Shown here piece after piece: positions 7,910 through 28,752 of a DNA stretch of 64,000 nucleotides. Where the stretch lies: NCBI GenBank assembly GCA_049320885.1, contig JBMORA010000064.1, positions 96,001-160,000 on the forward strand, written 5' to 3'. The notes under the pieces are model-generated. The model was not told the DNA's origin. It worked only from the letters and a program-made list of their open reading frames with translations, and searched no databases. The translations under genes and the position numbers were made by a program. This DNA comes from Thermodesulfobacteriota bacterium (GTDB taxonomy: Bacteria; Desulfobacterota; Desulfobacteria; Desulfobacterales; SURF-7). Numbering within the stretch: position 1 is the first letter of the stretch; each line of letters opens with the position of its first letter.

Positions 7910-9628
7910 TCAACTCGCTTTGGAAAACGAGCGTTCATACGACCAGTCGTCCCAGACCTTCTCAATGATTTTCATCAACAGCGGTGTGATGATTTCGTCC
8001 GCTTTTTTCCCGTACAACAGATCCAGGTGATTGGCACCCTCGATGACAAAATCGATCAGCTGGCTTTTTTCCGAACTGATCCGTACTTTTTTCAGGTCGC
8101 TGGGGGATGAGAGATGATAGCGTCTTTTTATCCGGTGGGGATAGTACTGGCTGTAACGAAGGTTCTGGGTCGAGGCGAGATGGTCGTTCGTGCCCCAGAA
8201 ATGGAATACGGGTATATCTTCCGGGAACCAGCCGAGGGATTCCGAATAATTCAGCCGGCTCTCGTCCATGCGCTTGAACCCCTTGCCGTCATAGATCGCC
8301 TTCAGGCACTGAAAACCCAGTCCCAGCGGAATGGACTGGGTGGCGGTTTTCAGGTAGCGCTCGACGAAATACTTGTCGTTTTTATGATTTTCAGGGGAAA
8401 TCAGGAAATTCAGTTCGCCGATATTGTGGTTGGAAAGAAAACGGATGATCTGCTTCAGCATGGGCAGTTCCGTCAAGACTTTGGAAATTTCCTGGACCGG
8501 CACCTGCTGGAAACGGAAAATGCGGGACAAATGATTCAGCCACAGGGCCGTGGGGAAAAACAGATGGGATTTTTTTTCGAAAAATTTGGGCGAGCCCAGG
8601 GAAACGATGCCCCGGACCATCTTCAGATACTGGCTGGCTTCCGCGGCCGGGGGCAGGATCTGGTTCAATATTTCCTTCTGGTGGTTGTCGAAGAGTTGAA
8701 TATCGTCCAGGTAGCGGCGCAGGGACCAGTTCAGCACCATATACTCGGAAACCAGTCCGCCCATGCTGTGTCCCACCAGGAAGGTCGGCTTGCCGTAGCT
8801 CCGGCTGTTTAAAAACCGGACCACGGTCGCCAGGTCGAAATCGATCAGGGTGTCGACGGTATACAGGGGGTCGAAACGCCCCTCGTTGACGCCCACGCCT
8901 CTGGGGTCGAAAAGATATACCCAGCAGCCTTTATCCGCCAGATCCTTGGCAAGGGAATAACGGTTGTTGATGTTGAAGCAATTGCTGTTGTTGGCGAATC
9001 CGGGCACCAGAACCACCGCCGGATGGTTGTCGCCGGCCGTCACCGCCTCCATGCTCACCAGGCGGCGAAAGGCGATTTCCTTGCCTTCATCCGTGAAATC
9101 ACGATAATACACCGTTTCATAATCCCCGCGGCCGTTCCGGCTGGCTTCCTCGATCTTGCTTTCGAAGTAGATCGGAACCGAATCGGAGCGCAACGATTCT
9201 TTCAGAATCCGGCGGCGGCGGGCGACGTTGAGAATGGTGGGGATTTGTTTCTTGGGGATATTGAACCGCTTCAGCGATAAATACGCCAGATCCTTTTCGG
9301 AAAGCAGGATGACGTTTTCGGTCAAACGCAGCCTGCCTTTCTCCAGTTCGTCGACGACCACCAGTTTGATCTCATCCCGCTGAATCCGGACTCCGGTGGC
9401 GTTCAGGAACATGTGGTACAACGCCAGGGCCAGCTTGCCCACGGCGTCGGTGCGGATTTCCTCCTGGCTGACGATCAGTTCCTTTGAAACCGGCAAGCCC
9501 ATGTTGATCTGGCCCTTATAGAATTTGCTATAGGCATTGTAGCCGGAATTGATCAACAGCGTCGGTATGTCGTTGACGACGCAGCGGGTGAATGAACCGC
9601 CCAGCTTATTCAACTTCTTGAAAATCAT
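7910..9628 (-). CDS. Alpha/beta-fold serine hydrolase (lipase/esterase-like) with N-terminal extension
   Basis: Oxyanion VLVPGF, nucleophile GHSMGG, candidate Asp GTNDHL and His ANHLDL. ATGA overlap with the upstream reductase. Confidence 0.8.
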   Translation of the reverse strand: MIFKKLNKLGGSFTRCVVNDIPTLLINSGYNAYSKFYKGQINMGLPVSKELIVSQEEIRTDAVGKLALALYHMFLNATGVRIQRDEIKLVVVDELEKGRLRLTENVILLSEKDLAYLSLKRFNIPKKQIPTILNVARRRRILKESLRSDSVPIYFESKIEEASRNGRGDYETVYYRDFTDEGKEIAFRRLVSMEAVTAGDNHPAVVLVPGFANNSNCFNINNRYSLAKDLADKGCWVYLFDPRGVGVNEGRFDPLYTVDTLIDFDLATVVRFLNSRSYGKPTFLVGHSMGGLVSEYMVLNWSLRRYLDDIQLFDNHQKEILNQILPPAAEASQYLKMVRGIVSLGSPKFFEKKSHLFFPTALWLNHLSRIFRFQQVPVQEISKVLTELPMLKQIIRFLSNHNIGELNFLISPENHKNDKYFVERYLKTATQSIPLGLGFQCLKAIYDGKGFKRMDESRLNYSESLGWFPEDIPVFHFWGTNDHLASTQNLRYSQYYPHRIKRRYHLSSPSDLKKVRISSEKSQLIDFVIEGANHLDLLYGKKADEIITPLLMKIIEKVWDDWSYERSFSKAS

Positions 9629-11685
9629 CCCTTCTTCAACTCCTTGACAGCGAGTTTTTTAACGGTGTCAATATCCTCGTCGCTGATGACACCTTCCACC
9701 CCTGAAATTGCAGCAAGCTTCATGCCATGTTTAAGGCCCAAGCGATAAATTTCGCGGACTTTGTCCCATTGGGGCGCGGAGCCCACGGTAAATGTCTCGA
9801 ATCGGCCTTCCAGCGCCAAAATGATGGTTTCAGCCAGGCCGGCGTAAGCCACCTTCGGCGGCAGACCGATATCCTTCATTTCCACTTCTTCACCGGGAAG
9901 AAGAATCTCGCCGCTGCGGATTACCAAAACATCGGGCCTTTTGGCAACATGCTTTTTGGAAAACACCATGGGTCTGGTGATGTCCGTGATGACGCATCCA
10001 GGCTTGACCTGCATGATGTCCAGCACGCGACCCGCCCCGGAGCTGGCCGCCACGATGACATCCATTTCTCCCAGGTATGTATCCGCGCGCGTGGAAATAT
10101 GCAGTTTTACGTCGGGGGCTTCTTCCATGATCGATTCCTGCAGCGCCAGCAGCTTGGCAATATTCCGGCCCACCAGGTATACTTCCTCGAAAGCACGGGC
10201 CAGGAGTCGCGAGCAGATGACGCCCACCGGACCCGTGGCACCGATCACCATGGTTTTGGCGCTGAGGATTTTCTTGCCCTTTTTAATTTTGGCAAGCCCC
10301 ATCCGACGCACCGCCTCCGCCGCGGCCCAAAGCGCGGCGGAGGCGACATAGCTGTTTCCCGTTGTTATGGGTAATGCGGCGTGTTTGGCGACTTCCATGC
10401 TGGAATCTTTCAATTCCCGCGGCATCATCCCGATCCCCATGATCTGGGCGCCCAGCTTTTTGGCGATATTCGCCGCTTGCAGGATGCGCTTTTTTGTAAA
10501 ATCGGGAGGATGGGCCGTCATCTGTTCCGGTGTTTCGCCCAGGGCGATCAGCCAGCCTTCCGCTTCCACACCGGTTGCAGACCGGATGCCCGTTACTTTG
10601 GAATAGACGAAGGGCGGCGAATACGCCATGACTTTTTCCACCACGCCCATTACCCCGGGAGTCATATCGGCCAGGACTTCGATGGGCTTTAGTTTTTTGA
10701 GAAACTCCTGGTTCAGGGGGTGCACGAGGTAGGCAAAGCGGTTGACGCGCTTCGGTTGCCCGGCCGGATAAACGATTCTCGGCTCCATGTTCATTTCCGT
10801 TATGATGTCGAGGAGATCGTCGCCGCTTCGATTTTCCTTGGGAATGTTCAAGGCCGCAATCAACAGCGCTTCCAGAACGCAAACGCCGACTACCTCCTTG
10901 ATCAGGGCAGGGGTGGTGTCGATGATGACATCCACCTCCTTTTCTTTCAGAAATTCCAGCCGGTCGTCATAGGCGGTGGAGGTGATGATGGTTTTCCCTT
11001 TCAGATCGCCGTCGCCCAGCAGTTTCAAATAACCGAAAAAATTGCTGTGAGGCACCACGATGATCTGGGCTTTTTGGGCTGCCTGGCGCAGAAGATATTC
11101 GTTCAGGCTGCGCAGGGGTTTGACATCGGATAATAGTTTCCGGCCGGGGAGCCATTCCATGGCCGGCCGCACCTTGCCGGCATATAGCCGGAATTCTTCC
11201 AGGGAATTGATAAGCCTGGGCAGGGTGTTTTCAATCAACGGGTCGGCGAAGCCCAGATTGACGGTGTATTCCGACATGACCTGGGCGATATTGTAGCTGG
11301 ACATGCCTGAAAAAAAGAGCACCCTGGCATTATTGAAATAATTGTTGCCGAATTTGAACTGGGTATGGCGCAGGGACCATTCATGCCCCACGTCGCGTAA
11401 TGTCTTCCCGGTTGTCACCGGGGTTTCCAGGGTTTTTCCCAACCGTAGGAGCTTTTGGGTCTTCGGGTCCGGACCGGCTTTGCGTCCGACGTTATATGGG
11501 AAGCGGATGCCGCCCAGACCGATGGCGTCGGCCTTCTTGTTCCATTGGAGCATCAGGTCCGAGGCTTGCTCATAATCGCCATCCGTTCCGAAACGCCGGA
11601 TGCAGAATTTTTGATTCATGAAGCGGGTCTCAAATTCGTAATCGTCCCGGCTCGGGCCGAGGCTGATGTCAACGATTTGTTTCAA
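9625..11685 (-). CDS. Acyl-ACP/CoA reductase-like protein (AAR-like C-terminal half plus ~310-aa N-terminal domain), paralogue B, catalytic Cys replaced by Gly
   Basis: SPPFVYSKVTGIRSATG, ITTGNSY, IGATGPVG Rossmann motif, YAGLAET. TTG start at 11685 after RBS GAGGAGG; the longer ORF-track start overlaps the upstream gene. Confidence 0.7.
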   Translation of the reverse strand: MKQIVDISLGPSRDDYEFETRFMNQKFCIRRFGTDGDYEQASDLMLQWNKKADAIGLGGIRFPYNVGRKAGPDPKTQKLLRLGKTLETPVTTGKTLRDVGHEWSLRHTQFKFGNNYFNNARVLFFSGMSSYNIAQVMSEYTVNLGFADPLIENTLPRLINSLEEFRLYAGKVRPAMEWLPGRKLLSDVKPLRSLNEYLLRQAAQKAQIIVVPHSNFFGYLKLLGDGDLKGKTIITSTAYDDRLEFLKEKEVDVIIDTTPALIKEVVGVCVLEALLIAALNIPKENRSGDDLLDIITEMNMEPRIVYPAGQPKRVNRFAYLVHPLNQEFLKKLKPIEVLADMTPGVMGVVEKVMAYSPPFVYSKVTGIRSATGVEAEGWLIALGETPEQMTAHPPDFTKKRILQAANIAKKLGAQIMGIGMMPRELKDSSMEVAKHAALPITTGNSYVASAALWAAAEAVRRMGLAKIKKGKKILSAKTMVIGATGPVGVICSRLLARAFEEVYLVGRNIAKLLALQESIMEEAPDVKLHISTRADTYLGEMDVIVAASSGAGRVLDIMQVKPGCVITDITRPMVFSKKHVAKRPDVLVIRSGEILLPGEEVEMKDIGLPPKVAYAGLAETIILALEGRFETFTVGSAPQWDKVREIYRLGLKHGMKLAAISGVEGVISDEDIDTVKKLAVKELKKG

Positions 11686-11696: not shown

Positions 11697-13760
11697 CTAG
11701 TTCAGCGCCGCTTTTTTGGCTTCCAGTGCGAGTTTCTTGACCCTGGCGATATCCTCGTCCGTGAACACGCCGTCCACGCCGGATATGGCTGCCAGCTTCA
11801 TGCCGTGTTTCAGACCCAGTTTGTAAATTTCCTTCACTTTTTCCCATTCGATGTCCCGACCGATGGTGAACACCTCGAAGCGTCCTTCCAGGGCCAGGAC
11901 AATGGTTTCGGCCAGGCAGGCATAGGCGACCTTGTGGGGCAGGCCGATGTTTTTCATTTCCGGATTGCCGGGCAATTCAATTTCACCGGATTCGATGACG
12001 AGAACATCCGGACGTTTGGCCACATCTTCCGGCGAAAGATCCAGGGGGCGGGCCACATCGGTGATGACGCATCCGGGTTTGACCTTGGTAATGTCCAGAA
12101 CCGTTTTCCCGGCACCGGAAGTGGCCGTGACAATGACATCCATGTCCGGCAGATAGGTATCCGGCCGTGTGGTGACTTTGATTTTCACTTCCGGGTTTTC
12201 CTGCAAAATTGATTCTTTCAGCGCCATGAGTTTGGCGGTGTTGCGGCCCACCATGTACACTTCGTCGAATGCCGTTGCCAACAGGCGGCAGCAAACCGAT
12301 CCGATGGCCCCGGTGGCGCCCAGCACCATGGATTTCCCCATGATTTTCTTTCCTTTTTCAATCTTGATCAGCCCCATGCGCCTGACGGCGTCCGCGGCGG
12401 CCCAGAGAGCGCCGGAGGCGCTGTAACTGTTGCCCGTCGTGATGGGGATATCGGCTTTCTTGGCCACGGTGACTCCCGCATCGCCGACCACTTTGGTGAA
12501 GGCGCCGAGGCCCATGATCTGGGCGCCCATGCGTTTGGCCATTCTGGCGGCTTGCAGCAGGCGTTTGTAGGTGAACTCCGGACTGTGGGCGAGCATCTGT
12601 TTCGGCGTCCCGCCCACGGTGATCAGCCAGCCTTCCGCTTCCGCGCCGGTGGGGGATTTGATGCCGGTTACCCGGGAATAAACCCACGGTGGCGCGTAGG
12701 CGACCACTTTTTCGACCGCGTCCAGGAAGACCGGTGGGGTAAAGCTGGCCATGAAATCCACGGCTTTGTCCTTTTTCAGGAATTCCTTTGATAAAGGATG
12801 GATAACAAACGCGAAGCGGTTGATGCGTTTCGGGTTGCCCGAGGGATAGACGATCCGCGGATCCATCTTTTGAGCGCTGATGATTTCCAACAGGTCGTCC
12901 GACCGGACCTGGTCCCGGTTTCTTCCCATGGCGGCGATGATCAAGGCTTCCAGTAAATTGGGGGGGACCACCCTTTCCAGGATTTTTGGGGTTGTATCGA
13001 TGATGACATCGACGCCCCTTTCTTTCAGAAAGGAAATTCTGTCATCATAGGCAGTGGAGGTGATGATGGTTTTACCGCCCAATTCCTCAATGGAGGTGTT
13101 TTTCAGGTATTCGTGGAAATCATGATGCGGCACCACGATAATGTTGGCTTTCTGCATCGCTTTTCTAAGAATGAAATCGTTCCAGGATTGAATGGGCACG
13201 ACGGAACCGGTCAGCCGTTTGCTCGGCACCCATTGCAGAATTTCATGAAAACCGTGGGCGTAGGATTCCAGATCCTTGAGGGAGTTGATAAACTTGGGGA
13301 TGCCGTTTTCCAGGATCGGATCCGCAAAGGAAAGGTTGTCGGTGAATTCGGACATGACCTTGGCAATACGGTAACTCACCATGCCGGACAGGAACAGGAC
13401 TTTGGCATTGCTGAAATAGTTGCCGAATTTGTATTCGATATAGCGCAGCGACCATTCGAAGGAAACGTCGCGCAGCCGGTCTCCCATGGTGACCGGTGTC
13501 TGGATTTGAGTTCCCAGCTCTTTCAGCTTGTTGCTGTTTTTTCTTGTCAGATAGCGGGGACCGATACCGTAAGGGCTTCTAACGCCCCCCAGACCGATGG
13601 CGGCCGCCTCCTTATCCCATTTCAGCAACAGGGCGGCGGCTTTTTCCATATCGCCGTCGGTACCCAGCCGTTTGATCAGGAAATCCTGCCCAAGGAATTC
13701 GGTTTCAAACTCATAATTTTTATCGCTCGGCCCTAGGCTGATGCTGACGACCTTTTTCAC
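11697..13760 (-). CDS. Acyl-ACP/CoA reductase-like protein (AAR-like C-terminal half plus ~310-aa N-terminal domain), paralogue A
   Basis: APPWVYSRVTGIKSPTG, GLGAFT, TTGNSY, VLGATGAIGSVCCRLL, DVARP and YACLAET align with cyanobacterial AAR motifs (APPQIV..SATG, ALGGFT, TTGNT, VGATGDIGSAVCRWL, FACFAE). GTG start after RBS AGGAGG. Confidence 0.75.
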   Translation of the reverse strand: MKKVVSISLGPSDKNYEFETEFLGQDFLIKRLGTDGDMEKAAALLLKWDKEAAAIGLGGVRSPYGIGPRYLTRKNSNKLKELGTQIQTPVTMGDRLRDVSFEWSLRYIEYKFGNYFSNAKVLFLSGMVSYRIAKVMSEFTDNLSFADPILENGIPKFINSLKDLESYAHGFHEILQWVPSKRLTGSVVPIQSWNDFILRKAMQKANIIVVPHHDFHEYLKNTSIEELGGKTIITSTAYDDRISFLKERGVDVIIDTTPKILERVVPPNLLEALIIAAMGRNRDQVRSDDLLEIISAQKMDPRIVYPSGNPKRINRFAFVIHPLSKEFLKKDKAVDFMASFTPPVFLDAVEKVVAYAPPWVYSRVTGIKSPTGAEAEGWLITVGGTPKQMLAHSPEFTYKRLLQAARMAKRMGAQIMGLGAFTKVVGDAGVTVAKKADIPITTGNSYSASGALWAAADAVRRMGLIKIEKGKKIMGKSMVLGATGAIGSVCCRLLATAFDEVYMVGRNTAKLMALKESILQENPEVKIKVTTRPDTYLPDMDVIVTATSGAGKTVLDITKVKPGCVITDVARPLDLSPEDVAKRPDVLVIESGEIELPGNPEMKNIGLPHKVAYACLAETIVLALEGRFEVFTIGRDIEWEKVKEIYKLGLKHGMKLAAISGVDGVFTDEDIARVKKLALEAKKAALN

Positions 13761-13809: not shown

Positions 13810-14055
13810 TCAACAACCTACATCTTCGCCGTCGTTCCCGATGGCATTCACCGGGCAGATATCCATGGCTTCAAGGCAGCAGTCTTCCTCTTCCGCCGAT
13901 GAGGGCTGTTTGTAAAAGAATTCATATCCCTCCTCCAGATTCGAACGGATATTGTCCGCTGCGATTTCGACACACAGGGTGCAATTGATGCAGGAAACGT
14001 CCACATAATACCGCCCCCGGACGTTTTCTTTTATTTTTTTCGTTTTATCCGGCAA
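13810..14055 (-). CDS. Ferredoxin (single [4Fe-4S]/[3Fe-4S] type)
   Basis: CINCTLC...CPVNAI in an 81-aa acidic protein. RBS GAGGGAG. Confidence 0.9.
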   Translation of the reverse strand: MPDKTKKIKENVRGRYYVDVSCINCTLCVEIAADNIRSNLEEGYEFFYKQPSSAEEEDCCLEAMDICPVNAIGNDGEDVGC

Positions 14056-14126: not shown

Positions 14127-14318
14127 TCACCGGCGGTTTATCCCGGTGTCCGCGCGATAGCCCAGAAACAACAAGGCGATGAAAGGCAATTCGACCATGA
14201 ATTCGAGCGCAAACCCCAATACAATCAGCAGCAGGATCAGCGGCAGTTTGACGAACGTGAAGTAGGCACGCGAGAGTTTCGCTTTGATGGTCCCATGTAA
14301 TTCAGTTGCCGGCAGCAA
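14127..14318 (-). CDS. Small hydrophobic (membrane/hairpin) protein
   Basis: 63 aa with a ~35-residue hydrophobic stretch containing two prolines. Strong RBS AGAGGAGG before TTG. Fills the gap between WS/DGAT and ferredoxin on the same strand. Confidence 0.6.
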   Translation of the reverse strand: MLPATELHGTIKAKLSRAYFTFVKLPLILLLIVLGFALEFMVELPFIALLFLGYRADTGINRR

Positions 14319-14363: not shown

Positions 14364-16025
14364 TCAGCGTATCAGCTCCCGCATGATCTGCGCAACGTCC
14401 TGCAGCTGCACGTCCTCTTCGTGTTGTTGCTGATGGACGCTGCAATAGTCGGAACCGGGCAGCGGCTGCCTGCGACAGGGCTTGCCGCTTTTGGTTTCGG
14501 CTTGACAACGCGCGGGCCCCCGGCTTTTCGGTTTTTCCTTTTTCAAGCTTTTGGCGGCCTTGGCTTCCTGGTATCGATCATGAAGAACCAGCGGTTCGTC
14601 ATAAATTTTTCCGGATTTCACCAAATCCAGCAGGAAATTGAATTCTTCTTCGAATCCCTCCAGGAGCAGTTCCGGATCCGGCATCAATTTTTCATCGGCG
14701 GCGATACCCACCGTGACCTTCCCGTCATAGCTCAAAATACTGATTCCCAAACCGATTTTCCCGGAACGGGGAACCCAGAACATGATGTTGTTGATCTTTT
14801 TCCCGGCGAAATACAGCGGCTGCCTTGGTCCGGGAACATTCGTCATGACGCCCGAGGCCTTGTTTCCGAAAAGCTGGGCCGCCTTGCGGGCCAGGGCGGG
14901 AGGGAGGTAGCCGATGGCGCTGAGCAGGCCGAAATTGATATAGGGATCCGGCGCTTTCTTCAGCTGATCCATGCGTCTTTTGACCTCTTTGAGTCTCAGT
15001 ACCGGGTCTTCCAGGTAAACCGGCAGGGGCAGAAACACCAGACTGAATTTATTGCCCAGCTCGAATTCCGTTCCCGGTTTGCGAATGTTCACCGGGACGG
15101 TGACACGCAGGTCAAGCTCATTGACAGGGGTTTTCCTCGTTTTCAAATAGCGGCGCATGGCCCCGGTGACGGTGGCGATCAGTACATCATTCAGGGTGGC
15201 GGTGCTGATGGCTTTCCCGACGGTTTTTATCTTATCGAGAGGCATCGGTTCCGTCCAGGCGACCTTTTTCCGTACGCCTAATTTGCCCTTGAAGGCGGTA
15301 TCGGGATCCGACGACATGATGGTGTGCTTGGAAAGCACGGAAGCGAAATCGGTCGGGAGACAGCTGGTATTTTTTGCCAATTTTTTTAAATAGTCGGCAT
15401 CCGTCGCGGCCTTTTCGATTTCCCTTATCATCCTGCTGCTGAATTTCCGGCCGGCCCCCGCCGTGTCCTTGACCCTGCGGATCACGGCGTCGACGGACAG
15501 TAGCGGATCTATAGCCGATTTGCCTGATTTTTTTCGGGGTTCGCTTTTCGGCCAGGGCGCATTGGGATCCGTATCGGCGGCTGACAACAGCACATGGATG
15601 AGGGAGATGCCGTCCGCAATGCAATGGTGAATCCGGAAAAACAGAACGCAGCCATTGCCGTAATTTTCGATCAGATGGATCTGCCACAGGGGCTTGTCCG
15701 GATCCAGGGGGCTGATGGTCAGGTTGGCGATCATTTCCTGCAGATCTTTTTTATCCCCCGGCTTCGGCAGGGCAACCCGTTGCAGATGGGATTTCAGATC
15801 GTAATTCTTGTCCGTCTCCCAGAAGGGCAGACCGATGCCCGACTTGGGCCGGACGATGCGCATCTGGAACCGGGGAAAGGAGGCCAGCCGGCTTTCAATG
15901 GTGGCATACAATCGATTGTAATCCAAAAGCGACTCAAATTCCATGAAAGCGGTAATCACCATCAGGTTGGTGGGATCATCCATACAAAGCCAGAAATTAT
16001 CGGCATTGGTCATTCGTTCGGCCAT
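14364..16025 (-). CDS. Wax ester synthase / diacylglycerol acyltransferase (WS/DGAT, AtfA family) with C-terminal C3H zinc-finger-like module
   Basis: Catalytic HHCIADG (HHxxxDG), PLDPDKPLWQIHL, TLNDVL, VPVNIR, GN, TNVPGP, ISILSYDG. Confidence 0.93.
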   Translation of the reverse strand: MAERMTNADNFWLCMDDPTNLMVITAFMEFESLLDYNRLYATIESRLASFPRFQMRIVRPKSGIGLPFWETDKNYDLKSHLQRVALPKPGDKKDLQEMIANLTISPLDPDKPLWQIHLIENYGNGCVLFFRIHHCIADGISLIHVLLSAADTDPNAPWPKSEPRKKSGKSAIDPLLSVDAVIRRVKDTAGAGRKFSSRMIREIEKAATDADYLKKLAKNTSCLPTDFASVLSKHTIMSSDPDTAFKGKLGVRKKVAWTEPMPLDKIKTVGKAISTATLNDVLIATVTGAMRRYLKTRKTPVNELDLRVTVPVNIRKPGTEFELGNKFSLVFLPLPVYLEDPVLRLKEVKRRMDQLKKAPDPYINFGLLSAIGYLPPALARKAAQLFGNKASGVMTNVPGPRQPLYFAGKKINNIMFWVPRSGKIGLGISILSYDGKVTVGIAADEKLMPDPELLLEGFEEEFNFLLDLVKSGKIYDEPLVLHDRYQEAKAAKSLKKEKPKSRGPARCQAETKSGKPCRRQPLPGSDYCSVHQQQHEEDVQLQDVAQIMRELIR

Positions 16026-16339: not shown

Positions 16340-16813
16340 TCACGCATTCTGTCCCAGGCTGGGTGATATCTGTTCCGGCTCTTTTTCAGCCGGCATTTCG
16401 GGTTTTACCGCGGGTTTGGTTTGGGGTTTCTGGGCCTTGGTCATTTGCCGGGCCTGGATCCGTTCCAGTTCTTCCACTTTTTGGGCCAATTTTTTCAGGC
16501 TGTTGTTCAGTTTTTGGACCTGCTCTTTATTGGCCAGGTTCATTATTTCCAGTACTTTATTGATACGGGTGTCGACCTGGTTGCTGATCCATTTTTTGAT
16601 GTTTTCCGGTTTCAAAGGCGCTTCTTTTTTCTTGCTCGATGCGGCTGTCAATTGGGCGGTCACGGCTTTGGTCACATCCTTGCCGGTGCTGCTGAGAACC
16701 ACCTTGCACTTTTTTTTGCTCTTGATGATGTCGGACAATTGTTCCCTGGTGATGTATTCCTTGTTCAGCGTGTCATACAGTTTCCCGTTGGCGTATTTTT
16801 TGATCAACAGCAT
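16340..16813 (-). CDS. PhaR-type DNA-binding domain fused to a phasin-like C-terminus
   Basis: N-terminal IKKYANGKLYDT...YIT...TGKDVT (PHB-accumulation regulator N-terminal motif). C-terminal MNLANKEQVQKL coiled coil. RBS AAGGAGG. Confidence 0.85.
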   Translation of the reverse strand: MLLIKKYANGKLYDTLNKEYITREQLSDIIKSKKKCKVVLSSTGKDVTKAVTAQLTAASSKKKEAPLKPENIKKWISNQVDTRINKVLEIMNLANKEQVQKLNNSLKKLAQKVEELERIQARQMTKAQKPQTKPAVKPEMPAEKEPEQISPSLGQNA

Positions 16814-17137: not shown

Positions 17138-17812
17138 CTATGCGGCGTATGCGCTCCTGAGCGAATCCACCTTCTCGTTCAATTCTTTCACGCCTCTTGT
17201 AATGCTGTCAATGTCTTTTTTGCTGGGCAGGTTGAGCTGAGCTGGTATGGATTTCATGCGGCTGCTGATTTTTTTTTCTAGCTGCTGTTTTCCGGGGACT
17301 TTTTCGATGGCCTTTTTCCCGCGTTCGATGATGTCCTTTTTTACAATCCGGGCGTCTTTCTCAATACCTTTTAAAACGGATTTATAGTCATCGATCAGGC
17401 TGTCCATTTTTTCACGGGTATCGGCCTTTAGCTCCTCAATGAAATCCTTGCTTTCGTCCATGAGCCGGCTGATGGCTTTGCGGGGATCTTTCCTGGCTTT
17501 TTTCAGAAACATTTTGCCGTCATCCAGCAGGGAGTCGATTTTTTCCCGGGCGTCGTTCTTCACATCCTCGATGAATTCCTTGCCGTCATCCATCAGTCCC
17601 TCGATGGCTTTGACGGGGTCTTTTTTGAGGTCTTCCACGAATTCCTTGCCGTTTTCGATGGGTTTCCGGAAGACTTTTTCGTTGTATCGGTCCAGCTTGT
17701 CCGTCAAGGTGTTTTTGGCTTCCCGAAGGTTGCGGACCACATAATAGCGCGACCCGGCTTTTACCTTGCCCGATGGGGCGGCTTTCCGTTTTGCATTTTT
17801 TGCCTGTGCCAT
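17138..17812 (-). CDS. Phasin/apolipoprotein-like protein with five tandem 22-residue amphipathic repeats
   Basis: 22-aa periodic repeats and C-terminal LNLPSKKDIDSI phasin motif. ATG at 17812 after RBS GGAGG. Confidence 0.8.
   Translation of the reverse strand: MAQAKNAKRKAAPSGKVKAGSRYYVVRNLREAKNTLTDKLDRYNEKVFRKPIENGKEFVEDLKKDPVKAIEGLMDDGKEFIEDVKNDAREKIDSLLDDGKMFLKKARKDPRKAISRLMDESKDFIEELKADTREKMDSLIDDYKSVLKGIEKDARIVKKDIIERGKKAIEKVPGKQQLEKKISSRMKSIPAQLNLPSKKDIDSITRGVKELNEKVDSLRSAYAA
17327..17656 (-). repeat. Five in-frame 66-bp (22-aa) degenerate tandem repeats
   Basis: ENGKEFVEDLKKDPVKAIEGLM / DDGKEFIEDVKNDAREKIDSLL / DDGKMFLKKARKDPRKAISRLM / DESKDFIEELKADTREKMDSLI / DDYKSVLKGIEKDARIVKKDII. 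Confidence 0.85.
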
Positions 17813-17885: not shown

Positions 17886-17902
17886 ATAACGCACTGCGTC
17901 AT
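17886..17902. promoter_or_regulatory. Palindromic operator candidate 1
   Basis: ATAACGCACTGCGTCAT, located just downstream of the -10 box of the promoter for 17138-17812. Confidence 0.75.
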
Positions 17903-17908: not shown

Positions 17909-17937
17909 AATATGATGCGCTGCGTCATAAATGTCAA
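17909..17937 (-). promoter_or_regulatory. Sigma70 promoter TTGACA-17-CATATT with operator candidate 2 (17912-17928) in the spacer
   Basis: Minus strand TTGACAtttATGACGCAGCGCATCATATT. Confidence 0.75.
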
Positions 17938-18121: not shown

Positions 18122-18715
18122 ATGCACCATATAAAGAAATACGCCAATCGCAAAATGTATGACACGACGGATAGGAGATATATTTCCATGACCCAGCTTG
18201 CCGAACTGATCAAATCCGGTGAGGAAGTCATGGTGGTGGATAATCGCACGGATGAAGATTTGACCGCTGCGATCGTATCTCAGCTCATCGGCCGGGAGAA
18301 AAAGGGCAAGGATAAAATCGTATCTTCCAAGGTGCTGATGCAGCTTCTACGCAAAGGCGGAGGGACGCTGACCGACTACGCGAAAAAATACGCCTCTCTA
18401 TGGCAGAACGCGCTTACCATGGCGGAGGATGAAATCGACAAGGTCGTCAATCTGCTAGTCAAGGATAAGGAACTTTCCAAATCGGAAGGAAGCCGGTTGA
18501 AGCGGGAAATTCTTGGCTATTCCGACACCCTGAAAAAATGGGTCAGCGACAACGTCGACAGGCGGGTCAATGAGGTGTTCGGGATGATGAACCTGGCGAC
18601 CAAGGACGATATGAGCCATCTGGCGGCCAGGTTGGATCGATTGGAGCGAAAAATCCAGAGAATGGAATCCTCCCAGCCCAAAGGGGGGCGGGACCAGCAG
18701 CGCCATCCGGGTTAG
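18122..18715 (+). CDS. PhaR-type DNA-binding domain fused to a phasin (PhaF/PhaI-like) domain
   Basis: MHHIKKYANRKMYDTTDRRYISM...DNRTDEDLT, then LVKDKELSKSEG...MNLATKDDMSHL. ATG at 18122 after RBS GGAGG. Confidence 0.85.
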   Translation: MHHIKKYANRKMYDTTDRRYISMTQLAELIKSGEEVMVVDNRTDEDLTAAIVSQLIGREKKGKDKIVSSKVLMQLLRKGGGTLTDYAKKYASLWQNALTMAEDEIDKVVNLLVKDKELSKSEGSRLKREILGYSDTLKKWVSDNVDRRVNEVFGMMNLATKDDMSHLAARLDRLERKIQRMESSQPKGGRDQQRHPG

Positions 18716-20379
18716 TGAGAAGGGAAATGCCGGGGAGAAGTTCTCTGCGAACGCTTCAGCCATTGGGAGCAACCGCGATAAATCGTCAGCCGGATTTCTT
18801 TCTGCAGGTCGAGCAGCTTTTCGATGCTGTGTTGGTACAGAATCCAGGCTTCATCCAGGATGGCGCGATGGAACCGGAGGTTGATCAAATCGTCCAGGAA
18901 TAAGGCGGCGCCTTCCCGGAGGAGGTATCCATTCCTGTCGAAGGATGGATCAATATCGGCAAGCACGCCGTTGAGGGTCACCGCCGCTTTTTTATACATC
19001 ATGAGATCGGTGGGGAATATGACCCCCAGATAAGTGAGTTCCTCGAAAAAAAATTCGATGCTGGTAAGGACGCCACGGGCCCCTCCCGAATGATCGGTTA
19101 TAACGGAGTCGATCAACTCCATGACCGGTGATTCCAGTTCGGGATTCTTGGAAATCCCGCCGTTGGTGATGAGATCGGCGGCATGGAAAACCGCCCGGCG
19201 ACCCGCGGACAGGAGGCCGACGGCCAGAAATGCCATCAAAAACCGTTCCCGCCGGGTCAGGCGGCCCATCATGGCCCAGTCATAAAAAATGATTTCCGGC
19301 TGATCACCGTCAAATCGGTAAGCGATGTTGCCGGCATGGGGGTCGCCGTGAAATATGCTGATTTCGCGAAGCTCCTGGATCGGCTTCAGGATGCAGACCC
19401 TTGCAAGGGTCTCGGCCAGCTGTTTTTTCTGCAATGCGGTCAATCCGGCGACATCCGTGATTTTTTTCCCTTCCCGGCGGGTCATGACGGTCATTTCCGG
19501 CGTGGAGCCGGGGAGCGGCTCGGGAATAACGATATGACGCTGGTCCTGATAGTATCGCCGGGCCGCGATCAGGTGGGTCTGTTCGGCCGCCAGATCGATT
19601 TCATTTTCAATCAGACTACGCACCTGGTGGAGTGTGCCTGAAAAATCGAATTGCCGCATTCCCCAGTTTGTTTTCCGTTCGTCCAGGAAGACGGCCAGTT
19701 TTTCCAGCAGCGCCAAGTCGCCGGCGAGGTTCTTGCGGACTCTTGGTTTGACCACTTTCAGAACGGCCGGAATCGGCCTTTTAGAACCTTTTGTGATGAT
19801 GTCCGCCGGTACGACGGCGCAAACACTGGCCTCGGCAAGAATCCGCCGATCCGGAATCACGGTGTTTCCCGGTTTCAATCGGCGCAATTGTTTTGCTATC
19901 ATGGGATGGATCTGCCGATAGACGATTGTTTCCAGATTGTCTTCCAGATCGGTAAGCGTTTGCTTGAATTCGGGATCCAGACCGGGTGTCCGGCAGATGA
20001 CCTGGCCGAGTTTTTGTACGCAGGGCATGTCTTTCACCAGGACGCTCAGTCTGCTTCCCGGATCGGCATGGGGTGGAAGGGCCAGCTGATCGACGATTTT
20101 ATCCGTCAGGCGCGGGACCGGCAGTTCCTGAAGAAGGAAGATCATTGATTCGATGACCACGGGCTGGAACTTGTTGTATTGTTCCGGCAGAAGGCGGCTG
20201 AGACCGGTCCAGAGCACCATGGGACGCACCACCGTTTCGACGGTATGGCTGTCTTTCATTTTTTTCAAAATGGGTGCTATCCTGCTTCGCATCATGGCCC
20301 GGGTCGGCTGGCGTCCCTTGACGGGAGCCGCTGCCATGAATATCCGCAGATACGCTTTCTGGTTCGTGCCGGGATTCAT
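18712..20379 (-). CDS. ABC1/AarF/UbiB-family atypical kinase (divergent)
   Basis: QKLGQ, AEASV, VLKV, ENEIDL, HGDPHAGN, YDWAM (DFG variant). Start at ATG 20379 after RBS AAGGAGG; the ORF-track upstream start lies inside the promoter. Confidence 0.85.
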   Translation of the reverse strand: MNPGTNQKAYLRIFMAAAPVKGRQPTRAMMRSRIAPILKKMKDSHTVETVVRPMVLWTGLSRLLPEQYNKFQPVVIESMIFLLQELPVPRLTDKIVDQLALPPHADPGSRLSVLVKDMPCVQKLGQVICRTPGLDPEFKQTLTDLEDNLETIVYRQIHPMIAKQLRRLKPGNTVIPDRRILAEASVCAVVPADIITKGSKRPIPAVLKVVKPRVRKNLAGDLALLEKLAVFLDERKTNWGMRQFDFSGTLHQVRSLIENEIDLAAEQTHLIAARRYYQDQRHIVIPEPLPGSTPEMTVMTRREGKKITDVAGLTALQKKQLAETLARVCILKPIQELREISIFHGDPHAGNIAYRFDGDQPEIIFYDWAMMGRLTRRERFLMAFLAVGLLSAGRRAVFHAADLITNGGISKNPELESPVMELIDSVITDHSGGARGVLTSIEFFFEELTYLGVIFPTDLMMYKKAAVTLNGVLADIDPSFDRNGYLLREGAALFLDDLINLRFHRAILDEAWILYQHSIEKLLDLQKEIRLTIYRGCSQWLKRSQRTSPRHFPSH

Positions 20380-20434: not shown

Positions 20435-20463
20435 AAAATAACGCATTGCGTCATGAACGTCAA
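20435..20463 (-). promoter_or_regulatory. Sigma70 promoter TTGACG-17-TATTTT with operator candidate 3 (20438-20454) in the spacer
   Basis: Minus strand TTGACGttcATGACGCAATGCGTTATTTT, same geometry as 17909-17937. Confidence 0.75.
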
Positions 20464-20635: not shown

Positions 20636-21292
20636 ATGAACGATTCGATAAACAGTGGAAAACAGGCGGACCGGGACCGGTTTTTTAAATTAAAACGAGC
20701 TCTTCAGGCATTCCAGTCTGCGCGGTTGAGCCGTACGTATAAGGACATCAAGGAAAATCCGGAGTATGCCAAGATCGGAGTTTTTTTCTTCGAAAAACTG
20801 TATGCCCCGGAAGATTTTTCGTTCCGGGATGAGAGTATCCGTAAATTGCACAAACTCCTGAAGGGCAAGATTTACACGGGAATCATATCCGCCGTCAACA
20901 AGGTCATCGAATTGCATGAGCTCACCGACGAACTGGACAACCTTATGGTGGTGGGAATGATCGACCTCGGCGTCGGACCGGATTTGACCATGCAGCAATA
21001 TCAGGAAGTCTATCGCCGGCTGGACAACTATGATCAGCGTCTCTACCAGATACGGCTGAGCACCGATGTCACCCGCACGTTTCATCGCTTGAGCAAGAAA
21101 TGGCTGGTGGCCCTTTCCCTCAATACGGTACGATCCGCCGCTCATCTAATCGGCATGGGTAAAATCCTGGATTTCATTTATGAGGCGTATGAAGGTTTCC
21201 GAGCGATCAAGAATATCGATTTCTTTGTGGAAACGGTGGAGCAGCGGGAAATCGCCTGGCACAATGAGATCTGGTCCGCTGCGAATAAATGA
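20636..21292 (+). CDS. FFLEELY-motif family protein (function unknown)
   Basis: FQSARLSRTYKD...FFFEKLYAPEDFSFRD...ELHELTDELD...GFRAI. Confidence 0.7.
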   Translation: MNDSINSGKQADRDRFFKLKRALQAFQSARLSRTYKDIKENPEYAKIGVFFFEKLYAPEDFSFRDESIRKLHKLLKGKIYTGIISAVNKVIELHELTDELDNLMVVGMIDLGVGPDLTMQQYQEVYRRLDNYDQRLYQIRLSTDVTRTFHRLSKKWLVALSLNTVRSAAHLIGMGKILDFIYEAYEGFRAIKNIDFFVETVEQREIAWHNEIWSAANK

Positions 21293-24753: not shown

Positions 24754-24756
24754 ACG

Positions 24757-26451
24757 TCACAAGCCTTTTCTCACAATGGCCACAAGCAGCCAGATGCCCA
24801 TAACGGCCGCGGCCAGAAAGCCGATGATACCAATGAAGGAAATGCCGTAGAAAAGTGGCGGAGTGGCGGAGATGACGATCAGGGCCGATCCGATCAGGAG
24901 GGCGGCGATGATAATGGAAAATGCCAGGCGGTTGCTGATTTTGTGGTAAGCGGCCAGGGTCGTCTCCTGACCTTTGTACTCGACGTTGATCCCGATTTTT
25001 TCATTTTTGATCATCCGGGTGATGTCGAGAATATCCTTGGGCACTTTCTGGAGAAAGTGCCGGAGATCCCCGGCCAGAGTCACCAGATCGAAGGCGATAC
25101 GTTCCGGATAAAACCGGGCGATCTTGACTCTCGCAATAAACGGCGCAGCCTGGCCGACCATATCGAATTGCGGGTCGAGAGCTTTGGCCACTCCTTCCAC
25201 GGTGGCGAGGGCCTTGATCATCAAAAAAATATCCGGCGGAACCCGCAGTCGATGGTGGGAAACCAGCTGCAAAAGCTGCTGCAGCAGCCTGCCGACTTCA
25301 ATGTCTTTGAGGGGCTTGAACAGGTGCCGGCTGATGAAATCCGCCAGTTCCCTCTCAAGGGACCGGATATCCGGCTGGTCCTCCCAATCCGTTATGCGCA
25401 AAATCACTTGGGCGGCTTCGGCGGAGTTCCTGTGAACAATGCTGTCCAGCAGATCGACGAAGTTTTCCCGGGTTTGACGGTCCACGGTTCCGATCATGCC
25501 GAAATCAATCAGGCAAATGATATTCCCTGGCAAGACGAAAATATTCCCGGGGTGCGGGTCGGCATGGAAAAAGCCATTGTGAAACACCTGCTTCAGGGTA
25601 AGATTGGCGCCCCGGGCCGTGATCAGACGGGTATCAAGCCCGGCCGCCTTCAGGTTCGCCACATCGGAAACTTTGATTCCGTTGACGAATTCCATGGTGA
25701 TCACCTGAGACGTGGTCATCTCACGATAGACTTTCGGCACATACACCGTGAGATCCTCGGCGAATTGGCGGGCAAACCGCTCCATGCTGGTGGCTTCCAG
25801 GTTATAGTCGACTTCCTTGCCGAGGGTGCGGGCAAATTCCTCGACGATTTCCGTCGGCCGGTGGAAGGCAAACTCCTGAACGTGGCGTTCCATCAGGCTG
25901 GCGATATACAGCATGATTTCAAGGTCGATTTCGATGGTTTTGCGGATATTCGGGCGCTGCACCTTGATCACTGCTTCGCGGCCGTCGGTCATCCGCACCC
26001 GGTGAACCTGGCCAATGGAAGCGGAGGCAATCGGTTTTTCATCGAAGGCCTCGAATAGTTCCGCAGGCGGCCGGCCCAATTCCTGCTGGATAGTGCTTTT
26101 CACCTGATCGAATGGAAAGGCCGGGACTTCGTCCTGCAGTTTTGACAATTCATTGATGAACTCAATGGGAAACAAGTCCGGCCGGGTGGAAGCGATCTGG
26201 CCGAATTTGATAAAGGTGGGGCCTAGCTCCTCAAATACAATACGAATGCGCTCAGCCCTAGTCATTTTTTCCACGCGCTCTCTTCTTTTGCGCGTGATCA
26301 TCTGCAACCCCAGCTCGATATACTGGTCGATGTGCAGCCGGTTCAACAAATCGTCAAAACCATATTTCAGGAAGATGGTCAGGATCTGACGATACCGGTT
26401 CAGGTGGCGATAGGTGCGCCCGATGGCGGTGATTTTTTGAATGCTCAGCAT
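24757..26451 (-). CDS. ABC1/AarF/UbiB-family atypical kinase with C-terminal TM helices
   Basis: LGPTFIKFGQIASTRPD, ASASIGQVH, VIKVQRP, HADPHPGN, IDFGM. Confidence 0.93.
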   Translation of the reverse strand: MLSIQKITAIGRTYRHLNRYRQILTIFLKYGFDDLLNRLHIDQYIELGLQMITRKRRERVEKMTRAERIRIVFEELGPTFIKFGQIASTRPDLFPIEFINELSKLQDEVPAFPFDQVKSTIQQELGRPPAELFEAFDEKPIASASIGQVHRVRMTDGREAVIKVQRPNIRKTIEIDLEIMLYIASLMERHVQEFAFHRPTEIVEEFARTLGKEVDYNLEATSMERFARQFAEDLTVYVPKVYREMTTSQVITMEFVNGIKVSDVANLKAAGLDTRLITARGANLTLKQVFHNGFFHADPHPGNIFVLPGNIICLIDFGMIGTVDRQTRENFVDLLDSIVHRNSAEAAQVILRITDWEDQPDIRSLERELADFISRHLFKPLKDIEVGRLLQQLLQLVSHHRLRVPPDIFLMIKALATVEGVAKALDPQFDMVGQAAPFIARVKIARFYPERIAFDLVTLAGDLRHFLQKVPKDILDITRMIKNEKIGINVEYKGQETTLAAYHKISNRLAFSIIIAALLIGSALIVISATPPLFYGISFIGIIGFLAAAVMGIWLLVAIVRKGL

Positions 26452-26466
26452 GGAAAGCTTCTTATG

Positions 26467-26790
26467 TCATTCCTTCCGGTTGCCTTTACCTTCAACCAGC
26501 GCTTTGAGGGCCGCGATTTCCGATTTCATCGCCGCAATGTCTTCCGGAGAGGGTACATCCAGCTTTTTAAGGATGTCCCTGACGGATTTTTCGATTCGTT
26601 GCTCCATGTTTTCCCTGGCTTCCTCATACCGTTTCAGCAGTTCGTTGGTGAATTTTTCACCTTCATTTTCGGAAAGTTCTCCTTTTGTGACGAACTCCTT
26701 GGCCCAGTCTTCCACTTCGTCCTTGGTTTTCAAGGCAAAGCCAATGCCCGTCATCATGGTTTTCTTGGCGATATCGAAAAAGTCTGGCAT
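26467..26790 (-). CDS. Phasin-family protein (PHA synthesis regulator phasin-like)
   Basis: MTGIGFALKTKDEVE...VTKGELSENEG...LDVPSPEDIAAM. ATG at 26790 after AAAGGA. Confidence 0.85.
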   Translation of the reverse strand: MPDFFDIAKKTMMTGIGFALKTKDEVEDWAKEFVTKGELSENEGEKFTNELLKRYEEARENMEQRIEKSVRDILKKLDVPSPEDIAAMKSEIAALKALVEGKGNRKE

Positions 26791-26817
26791 CCCTGTTTTT
26801 CCTTTCAGAAACGTCGA

Positions 26818-26894
26818 TTCACCGTGAAGGCGGATGACGCCCCCACGGTGAACGGGAAGTTGACGATTTCCCGGGCTTGCGGGCATGCCCGGGA
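26818..26894. other. Two adjacent stem-loops between the acyl-CoA dehydrogenase and phasin genes
   Basis: TTCACCGTG/CACGGTGAA (26818-26852) and TCCCGGGC/GCCCGGGA (26869-26894). Confidence 0.5.
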
Positions 26895-26910
26895 GGACCT
26901 AAAAAGAAAG

Positions 26911-28752
26911 TCAACCACCGAAAGCCGCTTCGATCATTTCGACGGCTGCACCGTCGGTTTTCAGAATGGCATCCAGTCTGCCCATGGTCACCGGCAGGAC
27001 ATAATGGATGAAAAACCGCGCCGTCTTGATCTGGCCGTCATAGAAGGCGATCTCCTTGTTCTTTTCCGCTTTGGCACGGATGGCTTCCGGATCGGAGGCA
27101 CCGGCCAGCTTTTCCAGTTTCGGCGCGGCGATGGCGGCCCGCCACAGCAGCATCCAGGCCATGGTTAAGTCGCCGAGGGATTCCAGAAACGGGTGCGCGA
27201 AAATATAGGCCTGCTTGATGCTGTCCGACATGGCTGTCTTCCCGAGGTGCATGGCGGTTTCACTGAAACGATTGAAAACCCGGTCCACGGCATCGGCCAG
27301 CCCGGCGGTCATGGGCTGTTCTTTGGCCGCCCCGATGTGCCGGCGGATTTCCCCCAGGTAGTCGAGGAAGGTCTTGCCTTTGTTCATTCCCAGCTTGCGG
27401 CCGAGGAGGTCGATGGCCTGGATGCCGTTGGTGCCTTCATATATCATGAAAATGCGGCAATCCCGCATCAGCTGTTCCACCGGATATTCCTGGATGTATC
27501 CGTAGCCGCCGTAGACCTGAACGGCGTGACTGGTGACCTCCAGGGCCTTATCGGTGATGTACCCTTTCACGATGGGCGTCAGCACGTCGATGAGCCCCAT
27601 CTGTCTGGCGCGTTCCTCCTCATTTTTTGCCGTGGCGGCCAGATCCCAGCATCGGCCGGTATAGTAAATCAGGCTGCGCATTCCTTCCACGTAGGATTTC
27701 ATGATCATCAGCTGACGGCGGACGTCCGCATGATGGATGATGGGGACCGGGCCCATGTCCGGATTGACCAGGTCGCGGCTTTGAATGCGTTCGCGGGCGT
27801 AATTGAGAGCGTACATATATGCCGCCGTGGAAACCGCGAACCCTTCCAGACCGACGAATTGTCGCGCTTCGTTCATCATGGTGAACATGGCGCGCATGCC
27901 TTTGTTTTCTTCACCCAGCAGGGTGCCGATGCACTGCCCTTTTCCGCCAAGGGTCAGGGAGCAGGTGGCATTGCCGTGCAGACCCATTTTTTCCTCGATG
28001 CCGGTGCAGACCACATCGTTGAATTCACCCAGGCTGCCGTCCGGCTGGATCCGATACTTGGGCACCAGAAAGAGGGAGATGCCCCTGGTGCCTTCCGGAG
28101 CGCCTTCGATGCGGGCCAGGACCGGATGAATGATATTCTCCACCATGTCCTGCTCCCCGCCGGAAATGAAGATCTTGGAACCGGTAATGGAATAGGTGCC
28201 GTCCGGATTTTTTTTGGCCGAGGTGGTCAGGGCGCCGACATCGGAGCCAGCCTCGGGCTCGGTGAGCAACATGGTGCCGGACCATTTGCCCGAGTACATA
28301 TTTTTAAGGCAGGCCTTTTTCTGCGCTTCGGTCCCATAGGTTTCAACCAGTTTGGCGGCACCGTGGGAGAGGCTCTGATACAGCATGAAGGCGGCGTTGG
28401 CCCCATGGAAATACTCGTTGGCCGCCAGGGAAACCAGCTTGGGCATTCCCTGCCCTCCCCATTCCGGGTCGTCGGTCATGGCCAGCCATTCTCCTTCATT
28501 ATACAACTTGTACACTTTGTGAAAACATTCGGGCACCGCGACCTTGCCGTTTTCAAAGCGGCACCCCTCATCCCCCGGTTTCTGCGTAGGCAGTATCTCC
28601 TTGATGGCCAGGTTCCTGGCCTCCGTGACGATCAGGTCGATGGTTTTTTTGTCGAACTCGGCGAATTTTTCATTTTTCGCCAGTTCCGCCGCCCCCATCT
28701 GTTCATGTAAAACAAAATCAACATCTCTTCGATCTGCAATCAGCTGTGCCAT
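26911..28752 (-). CDS. Acyl-CoA dehydrogenase (long, FadE5-like)
   Basis: GTMLLTEPEAGSD, ITGSKIFIS, EEKMGLHG, MMNEAR, QVYGGYGY, IYEGTNGIQ. ATG at 28752 after RBS AAGGAG. Confidence 0.95.
   Translation of the reverse strand: MAQLIADRRDVDFVLHEQMGAAELAKNEKFAEFDKKTIDLIVTEARNLAIKEILPTQKPGDEGCRFENGKVAVPECFHKVYKLYNEGEWLAMTDDPEWGGQGMPKLVSLAANEYFHGANAAFMLYQSLSHGAAKLVETYGTEAQKKACLKNMYSGKWSGTMLLTEPEAGSDVGALTTSAKKNPDGTYSITGSKIFISGGEQDMVENIIHPVLARIEGAPEGTRGISLFLVPKYRIQPDGSLGEFNDVVCTGIEEKMGLHGNATCSLTLGGKGQCIGTLLGEENKGMRAMFTMMNEARQFVGLEGFAVSTAAYMYALNYARERIQSRDLVNPDMGPVPIIHHADVRRQLMIMKSYVEGMRSLIYYTGRCWDLAATAKNEEERARQMGLIDVLTPIVKGYITDKALEVTSHAVQVYGGYGYIQEYPVEQLMRDCRIFMIYEGTNGIQAIDLLGRKLGMNKGKTFLDYLGEIRRHIGAAKEQPMTAGLADAVDRVFNRFSETAMHLGKTAMSDSIKQAYIFAHPFLESLGDLTMAWMLLWRAAIAAPKLEKLAGASDPEAIRAKAEKNKEIAFYDGQIKTARFFIHYVLPVTMGRLDAILKTDGAAVEMIEAAFGG

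Follow-up and report, generated by a model that had tools for sequence, protein, structure and literature searches.

Introduction

Polyhydroxyalkanoate (PHA) granules, which are known in sulfate reducers too, are governed by a well-described circuit of the repressor PhaR and the phasin PhaP. Bacterial wax esters are made by the wax ester synthase/diacylglycerol acyltransferase (WS/DGAT) together with a fatty-acyl reductase (FAR); those described for this role are FarA, AcrB, Acr1 and FcrA (Grossi et al. 2025, PMC11948995). By the figures of that source, 1% of WS/DGAT bacteria have FarA, 31% AcrB and 26% FcrA, and many of them have no known reductase. The acyl-ACP reductase AAR and the thioester reductase PigE form an acyl-cysteine intermediate that is reduced to the aldehyde with NAD(P)H (PMC8341465; 10.1101/2024.10.28.620694); AAR, an alcohol dehydrogenase (ADH) and WS/DGAT, engineered together in Synechococcus, gave wax-ester lipid bodies (PMC3594298). 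According to Galvan et al. 2023 (PMC10351704), accumulation of wax esters or triacylglycerol (TAG) was then unreported in Deltaproteobacteria; a 2026 preprint counts Desulfobacterota among genomes with TAG genes, as a survey that contains no experiments (10.64898/2026.07.24.740503). Here we describe a gene cluster at positions 7910-21292 of a 64,000-nucleotide stretch (the window, G000:C64:96001-160000) from a relative of the Desulfobacterales, in which WS/DGAT and a pair of AAR-related reductases lie next to phasin and PhaR genes.

The host genome is 98% complete. Its dsrA gene reaches 627 bits (cut-off 392.85), so by gene content the host is a sulfate reducer, presumably with an anaerobic lifestyle. 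The nearest homologues of the cluster reductase are Desulfobacterales records, the top one 95% identical; records named Desulfosudis oleivorans and Desulfosarcina are also among the relatives.

Results

Composition and distribution of the cluster

We consider it probable that the core at 7910-21292 produces wax esters and keeps them in a droplet with a protein coat. Reductase 1 would convert a long-chain acyl-CoA or acyl-ACP to the aldehyde, which an ADH would reduce to the fatty alcohol: in relatives most simply the clustered iron-containing ADH with an SCP2 domain (Fe-ADH-SCP2), here another ADH or reductase 2. WS/DGAT would join this alcohol and a second acyl-CoA into the wax ester. Phasin1 would coat the droplet and the lipase would mobilise the stored ester, while the long PhaR would repress the coat gene until droplets titrate it away. 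Gene order, motifs, folds, co-distribution and the palindrome discussed below, with its placement on promoter-like sites, are observed, and the chemistry of the enzymes is extrapolated from what is known of their families. The members are as follows (window positions; in brackets, where given, the number of reductase loci out of 80 with the gene).

7910..9628, minus strand: acid-lipase-like serine hydrolase with GHSMG and Ser288-Asp482-His534, identified by its triad and by profile matches to PDB structures (48, 2 of them distant)
9625..11685, minus strand: reductase 2, 686 residues, Gly616, a paralog of reductase 1 (about 61% identical) with the Rossmann motif present (50)
11697..13760, minus strand: reductase 1, 687 residues, Cys615, with a Cys-less N-terminal half of predicted AAR fold and an AAR/PigE-type C-terminal half
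13810..14055, minus strand: single-cluster ferredoxin, Fer4_13 PF13370, E 3e-15 (64)
14127..14318, minus strand: accessory 63-residue protein with one hydrophobic segment, TTG start behind GAGGAGG (8)
14364..16025, minus strand: WS/DGAT, 553 residues, HHCIADG at residue 133, TIGR02946 393.9 bits, cut-off 309.95 (49)
16340..16813, minus strand: PhaR1, PHB_acc_N domain (PF07879, 55.1 bits) and phasin-like C-terminus (31)
17138..17812, minus strand: Phasin1, about five 22-residue amphipathic repeats and a phasin-like tail, PF05597 31.5 bits (45)
18122..18715, plus strand: PhaR2 (the long PhaR), PHB_acc_N domain (PF07879, 73.5 bits) and phasin-like C-terminus (41), present in 28 of 29 reductase-positive genomes
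18712..20379, minus strand: ABC1 kinase a, PF03109 84.9 bits, kinase motifs intact (4, and also two other long-PhaR loci)
20636..21292, plus strand: FFLEELY protein, all-helical, NF047641 172 bits, cut-off 55 (33)

An earlier, sequence-only reading of the window had proposed a neutral-lipid inclusion-body system extending from 7910 to 28752. Family profile scans found all the genes that it listed, and its co-oriented run from 16025 to 7910 with gaps of at most 71 bp holds as well: with likely starts corrected, the minus-strand gaps are 45, 71, 49, 11 and -4 bp. Its notion of a lipid module survives in part, as a separate conserved core at 7910-21292, but not in its wider membership at 21404-28752, most of which lies outside the core.

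Of 152 confirmed reductase loci, the best 80 underlie the neighbourhood counts, and many of these end at contig edges. Gene order within the cluster is reshuffled between lineages. Two frequent partners elsewhere, Fe-ADH (43 loci) and a patatin (28), are missing from the cluster in the window. Cluster-bearing loci include records of the Delta 4 and Delta 3 symbionts of Olavius algarvensis (L010, L056).

Across 151 genomes of the order Desulfobacterales, the cluster reductase occurs in about a fifth (29), WS/DGAT in 27, FFLEELY in 24 and a phaC-like gene in 64. Of the gene set whose co-occurrence the sequence-only reading had proposed to survey, reductase and WS/DGAT share 26 genomes; three have only the reductase, one only WS/DGAT and 121 neither. 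The WS/DGAT count comes from a family search, since a search with a single protein (26/151) missed one divergent gene. In the sole WS/DGAT genome without the reductase (G064), which has no phaC match, a long PhaR and ABC1a stand beside WS/DGAT. Of 300 other genomes in a phylum-wide sample, 4 gave a match to the reductase. Outside the order its association with WS/DGAT is looser; of five genomes searched that are more distant, four have a WS/DGAT somewhere.

In five genomes of 93-99% completeness (G010, G067, G068, G123 and G139), reductase, WS/DGAT, long PhaR and FFLEELY occur together, and no credible phaC match was obtained. Seven such phaC-free, reductase-positive genomes were first counted; G053 was dropped for a PhaC-like frame with GYCMGG, and G103 for a phaE cut by the contig end beside a short phaR.

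The tandem-AAR reductases

The C-terminal half of the reductase aligns with PigE (E 1.9e-28) and with AAR (6jzq, E 2.7e-14), and Cys615 of reductase 1 matches AAR Cys294 and PigE Cys296 in the alignment (residue numbers as in PMC8341465). Among the 128 of 136 family members that were aligned (600-900 residues), this catalytic cysteine is present in 80/80 first-type reductases and replaced by glycine in 48/48 of the second type. The two types have 66 conserved columns each in the N-terminal half; in the C-terminal half there are 208 in the first type versus 145 in the second.

The N-terminal half of reductase 1 contains no cysteine at all, and its sequence profile found no match in the PDB; its likeness to AAR came from the fold search alone. 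The model of this half (pLDDT 90.5) has AAR as its top structural match (Z 14.3, rmsd 4.3, 248 aligned residues, 12% identity), followed by an AAR-like TAD at Z 12.1, over a background near 9.7. Each reductase is thus two AAR folds in tandem. Of the four AAR folds encoded by the operon, one has the catalytic cysteine; the two proteins flagged earlier as AAR-like are both of AAR fold, but the cysteine chemistry of AAR is possible in only one of them.

The scores stay far below the cut-offs of both families. Against the cyanobacterial AAR profile TIGR04058 the two proteins score 77.4 and 46.6 bits, with an equivalog cut-off of 449.7, and the score against PigE/TamH is 185 bits with a cut-off of 850. 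The latter match spans profile positions 1-360 of 837 only, and the fused PLP-dependent aminotransferase of PigE/TamH is missing from the reductase. Reductase 1 is predicted to reduce an acyl thioester to the aldehyde. For reductase 2, we think the role of a partner subunit without catalysis most likely, the alternative being an enzyme that reduces aldehyde directly, without the cysteine.

Stand-alone proteins of about 300 residues, annotated as 'putative quinate 5-dehydrogenase' (P0013-P0150), align with the AAR-like N-terminal half. At the position expected for the Cys-like motif they have mostly asparagine, and their annotation is probably mistaken.

The ferredoxin is the most constant neighbour of the reductase, and all four of its cysteines are invariant (65/65).

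WS/DGAT, lipase and alcohol supply

The HHxxxDG motif is present in 46/46 aligned WS/DGAT homologues. Residues 507-531 at the tail resemble a CCCH zinc finger (weak HGG_STG match), with all four ligands in 42/46 homologues; L061, L062 and L066 have a comparable short stretch that is separate from the WS/DGAT gene. The genome encodes a second WS/DGAT of 785 residues, fused to a C-terminal alpha/beta hydrolase (L003:2977-5334, G000 C7), and long WS/DGAT frames are present in G131 and G053 too.

The triad of the hydrolase is invariant in 22/22 aligned sequences, and its profile matches gastric lipase (E 7.2e-9), esterases (5e-8) and lysosomal acid lipase (E 1e-6) in the PDB. It was considered as a serine-type PhaC and set aside, since its similarity to the class III PhaC of this genome is not significant (E 0.037). 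The FFLEELY protein occurs exclusively in genomes with a long PhaR. The idea of a fold like that of ferritin or aldehyde-deformylating oxygenase (ADO) was examined with a model (pLDDT 85.6), whose best match reaches a Z of only 6.1, among unrelated helical proteins.

Because WS/DGAT enzymes are bifunctional (PMC11948995), the cluster might store TAG or mixed neutral lipid instead, with WS/DGAT acting mainly as a diacylglycerol acyltransferase and the reductase pair serving another product. The patatin at 28 of the loci fits such a store, and outside the order the reductase often stands without WS/DGAT. We nevertheless find this unlikely: no GPAT, AGPAT or phosphatidate phosphatase was among the 29 neighbour proteins scanned, a set that covers not every neighbour family, and WS/DGAT and reductase lie in one tightly spaced run and co-occur in 26 of 27 genomes.

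For the alcohol step, the Fe-ADH of other loci is mostly about 613 residues long, and the scanned representative has an SCP2 domain. It adjoins FFLEELY in both same-genus relatives examined; in the window, a pair of a solute-binding protein (SBP) and a histidine kinase at 21404-24753 occupies that position, and a second such pair lies at 132-4614. Alcohol-forming reductases were searched in 30 chosen genomes, comprising 3 with only the reductase and 27 that are WS/DGAT-positive. Five gave HMGR/FcrA, eight a strong NAD_binding_4 match (E < 1e-30), and ten either of the two; AcrB passed its cut-off in 0/5 genomes searched. Known alcohol-forming reductases are thus mostly not found in the genomes searched. 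ADO (PF11266) was likewise found in 0/5 genomes searched, this one included, with a positive Synechococcus control. The present genome has a NAD_binding_4-SCP2 fusion reductase (L111:1483-3021, G000 C1) before a hydrolase and behind a gene that we take to be radical-SAM-like.

The same neighbours could be read in the opposite direction, as a mainly catabolic set in which lipase, Fe-ADH and a reversed reductase (aldehyde to acyl-CoA) break down wax esters or long-chain alcohols from the environment, while WS/DGAT buffers toxic intermediates. Coat-like phasins and a PhaR-type circuit suit an intracellular inclusion, and the characterised relatives AAR and PigE are described as acting reductively (PMC8341465; 10.1101/2024.10.28.620694). 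We therefore think degradation decidedly unlikely, even with Fe-ADH at 43, an acyl-CoA ligase at 13 and an aldehyde:ferredoxin oxidoreductase at 8 of the 80 loci, a ferredoxin that adjoins the reductase at 64 and four genes of the aldehyde:ferredoxin oxidoreductase family in the genome.

PhaR, Phasin1 and their predicted operators

The PHB_acc_N domains of the two window PhaR proteins exceed the PF07879 cut-off of 25 bits, in agreement with the two PhaR-type DNA-binding domains reported before; on the PhaR profile TIGR01848 the same proteins reach 46.8 and 71.2 bits, below the cut-off of 109.45. The four phasin-motif proteins reported with them all match PF05597, but two are below its 28.8-bit cut-off (19.3 and 23.5 bits, versus 31.5 and 32.5 for the others). 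In Phasin1, 38% of sequence windows show a high hydrophobic moment, versus 3% in shuffled sequences (200 shuffles, all below the value observed), and its self-match peaks at a lag of 22. Its weak Pfam matches are to ApoLp-III (E 0.002) and Apolipoprotein (E 0.006). We predict that Phasin1 is the droplet coat, and the long PhaR the repressor and droplet sensor.

A 17-bp palindrome, ATRAYGCANTGCRTYAT, is found at 17886, 17912 and 20438, where it overlaps sigma70-like promoters of Phasin1, ABC1a and FFLEELY:

17886..17902, no strand: operator-like palindrome 1, position weight matrix (PWM) score 28.5, genome rank 2, a short way downstream of the promoter predicted for the phasin
17912..17928, no strand: operator-like palindrome 2, PWM 22.9, genome rank 3, between -35 and -10 of that promoter
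17937-17909, minus strand: promoter-like site of Phasin1, near palindromes 1 and 2
20438..20454, no strand: operator-like palindrome 3, PWM 29.3, genome best, overlapping promoter-like sites that diverge towards ABC1a and FFLEELY
20410-20439, plus strand, and 20463-20435, minus strand: divergent promoter-like sites at palindrome 3, for FFLEELY and ABC1a respectively

The first detection of the palindrome was not independent, as it was seeded from the window. A matrix was built from 111 sites of other genomes, with site position unused in training. Scanned over the 5.6 Mb genome, it ranks the three cluster sites first; the maxima from ten matrices with shuffled columns span 14.0-24.8. A fourth match (C34, score 22.2) is within a coding frame and was put down to chance. 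The palindrome stands within 300 bp upstream of Phasin1 at 45/47 loci, of the long PhaR at 27/60 and of FFLEELY at 9/36. ABC1a is predicted to be an optional member under this putative operator. Long PhaR genes without WS/DGAT or reductase (L087-L101) also have the palindrome upstream at most of the loci examined, sometimes beside ABC1b.

The absence of PHA synthase, as stated for the window before, holds there: GxCxGG was not found in any window ORF (open reading frame) of at least 100 residues, and none of the 57 window ORFs scanned matched a PhaC or thiolase family. It does not hold for the genome, which has a class I phaC on C9 (758.6 bits, above cut-off) and a class III phaEC on C50 (432 bits, above cut-off); for PhaB, no TIGR01829 match over cut-off was found in the genome. 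The class I locus also holds a DUF3141 protein and a short PhaR, together with what we take to be small phasin-like genes and a MaoC/PhaJ-like gene. A different palindrome, sharing the core GCANTGC, lies there between the short phaR and phaP-like genes.

Since PHA genes exist elsewhere in the genome, the question arises whether the PhaR and phasin genes of the window belong to them or to WS/DGAT. We separated long PhaR (E up to 1e-40, 46 genomes) from short PhaR (N-terminal-only match, E 1e-18 to 5e-11, 62 genomes). Three genomes whose long-type matches are split were left out of the long count, the genome lists were compiled by hand, and phaC was counted as any phaC-like match with E up to 1e-25. 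Short PhaR follows phaC (both in 59 genomes, phaC only in 5, short PhaR only in 3). Long PhaR accompanies WS/DGAT in 26 genomes, with WS/DGAT only in 1 and long PhaR only in 20; with phaC it shares 30, leaving phaC only in 34 and long PhaR only in 16.

That the PhaR and phasin genes serve the PHA granules of a phaC elsewhere, their proximity to WS/DGAT being a general clustering of storage genes, would suit the two phaC loci of this genome, the phaC match in 30/46 long-PhaR genomes and one locus (L096) where some 3.5 kb separate a long PhaR with the palindrome from a class I phaC. We hold it to be very unlikely, as a short PhaR, phasin-like genes and a palindrome of its own are present at the class I locus, 16/46 long-PhaR genomes have no phaC match at 1e-25, and the cluster palindrome is absent from both phaC loci, which score below zero with its matrix. 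The arrangement fits two parallel repressor circuits, one predicted for the cluster and one for the class I PHA locus, and the core is a separate conserved system, distinct from the PHA genes of the genome.

Flanking genes

Beyond the core, the window continues with genes of lower specificity:

24757..26451, minus strand: ABC1 kinase b (ABC1b), a neighbour, not system-specific (18 of 80 loci)
26467..26790, minus strand: small phasin-like gene, a neighbour (2 of 80 loci)
26911..28752, minus strand: acyl-CoA dehydrogenase, no conserved part of the system, with only 25-26% matches (2 of 80 loci)

The sequence-only reading had counted these three as members, and its span takes in the SBP and the histidine kinase; including any of them is unsupported. 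The ABC1b orthologue is near-universal in the order (114/151 genomes, single-copy in most, with or without phaC or WS/DGAT) and not specific to the system, and SBP and histidine kinase occur at 1 and 6 of the 80 loci. The remaining scanned genes of the window belong to housekeeping, transport and signalling. At 40235-41971, a DUF6909 protein adjoins a nucleotidyltransferase.

Discussion

Several observations weigh against storage of wax esters by the cluster. The related genomes of the survey are kin, not independent, so that the co-occurrence figures are too strong. A phaC match is found in 22/29 reductase-positive genomes versus 42/122 others; with two PhaCs in this genome as well, the coat proteins could also bind PHA. 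Seventeen genomes have a long PhaR but lack both WS/DGAT and the reductase. At 80 metagenome loci, obtained with a homologue named Rhodoferax as query, the reductase is mostly alone (Fe-ADH adjoins it at 19, WS/DGAT at 5), and none of these loci has the palindrome. The palindrome stands within 300 bp upstream of WS/DGAT at 20/53 loci and of reductase 1 at 2/77, and in the window it is upstream of neither. No orthologue of Fe-ADH-SCP2 was found in this genome (best match 35-38%), which would therefore need another ADH or reductase 2 for the alcohol step; Acr1-type short-chain reductases and the NAD_binding_4-SCP2 protein are possible alternative sources of fatty alcohol. Finally, the genome has a third Cys-containing tandem-AAR reductase (L085:9391-11721, G000 C2) with no cluster or lipid gene matched nearby, its neighbours being presumably heme-biosynthesis-like and housekeeping genes.

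Alkyl-ether membrane lipids are known in some Desulfobacterales. That the reductase feeds fatty aldehyde or alcohol into them, with WS/DGAT as an overflow, has in our view the slightest of chances: some FARs supply ether-lipid synthesis (PMC11948995), and the lone third reductase copy and the three reductase-only genomes point to use without WS/DGAT nearby, but no PlsC-like or alkylglycerone-phosphate synthase family was among the scanned neighbour proteins and the distribution of the reductase follows WS/DGAT.

Wax-ester storage is the reading that we retain. A wider claim can be built on it, which we offer tentatively and with rather less confidence: that strictly anaerobic sulfate reducers make wax-ester droplets through a fifth class of fatty-acyl reductase, the tandem-AAR enzyme with its invariantly Cys-less partner, under a dedicated PhaR sensor and operator parallel to the PHA circuit, with the ferredoxin perhaps tied to the disposal of reducing power. 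All parts come from known families, and the set of genes appears undescribed: no paper on it was found in a literature search to which most subscription journals and supplements were outside.

The cluster is a testable candidate for the missing fatty-acyl reductase of many WS/DGAT bacteria. If our reading is true, it would be a natural version of the route through AAR, ADH and WS/DGAT that has so far been engineered, and the sensing logic of PhaR and phasin would be reused for a second storage body in one cell. Desulfobacterales are common in sediments and about one in five of those sampled has the cluster, so an anaerobic source of sedimentary wax esters would be added.

Comparison with known systems

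With the bacterial wax-ester pathway, the cluster shares a WS/DGAT above the TIGR02946 cut-off with HHxxxDG, and a reductase candidate that follows WS/DGAT across genomes. It differs in that the reductase is of AAR fold, by homology and modelling, and belongs to none of the four described types, and in its dsrA-positive, sulfate-reducing host.

Compared with AAR (6jzq) and the N-terminal thioester reductase of PigE, the fold, the TTGN motif, the Rossmann motif and the catalytic cysteine of reductase 1 are alike. The proteins described here are, however, twice as long, with a second, Cys-less domain of predicted AAR fold fused in front; they come with a conserved Cys-to-Gly paralog, no ADO was found in the genomes searched, and no aminotransferase is fused.

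The hydrolase has the Ser-Asp-His triad of gastric and lysosomal acid lipases (1hlg, 6v7n), its best matches among solved structures. Only residues 176-326 or so align significantly, though, a region of about 170 residues at the N-terminus is unmatched, and esterases are near-equal.

Exchangeable apolipoproteins and the coat proteins of actinobacterial lipid droplets offer a parallel to the 22-residue amphipathic repeats of Phasin1. There is no significant homology with either; the likeness is physicochemical and deduced from the protein sequence alone.

As in the PhaR-PhaP circuit, a PHB_acc_N protein is encoded beside palindromic sites on a predicted phasin promoter. In contrast to that circuit, the C-terminus of the window PhaR is phasin-like and has no PHB_acc (PF05233) match, the palindrome is unlike that of the genome's PHA locus, and the distribution tracks WS/DGAT more than phaC.

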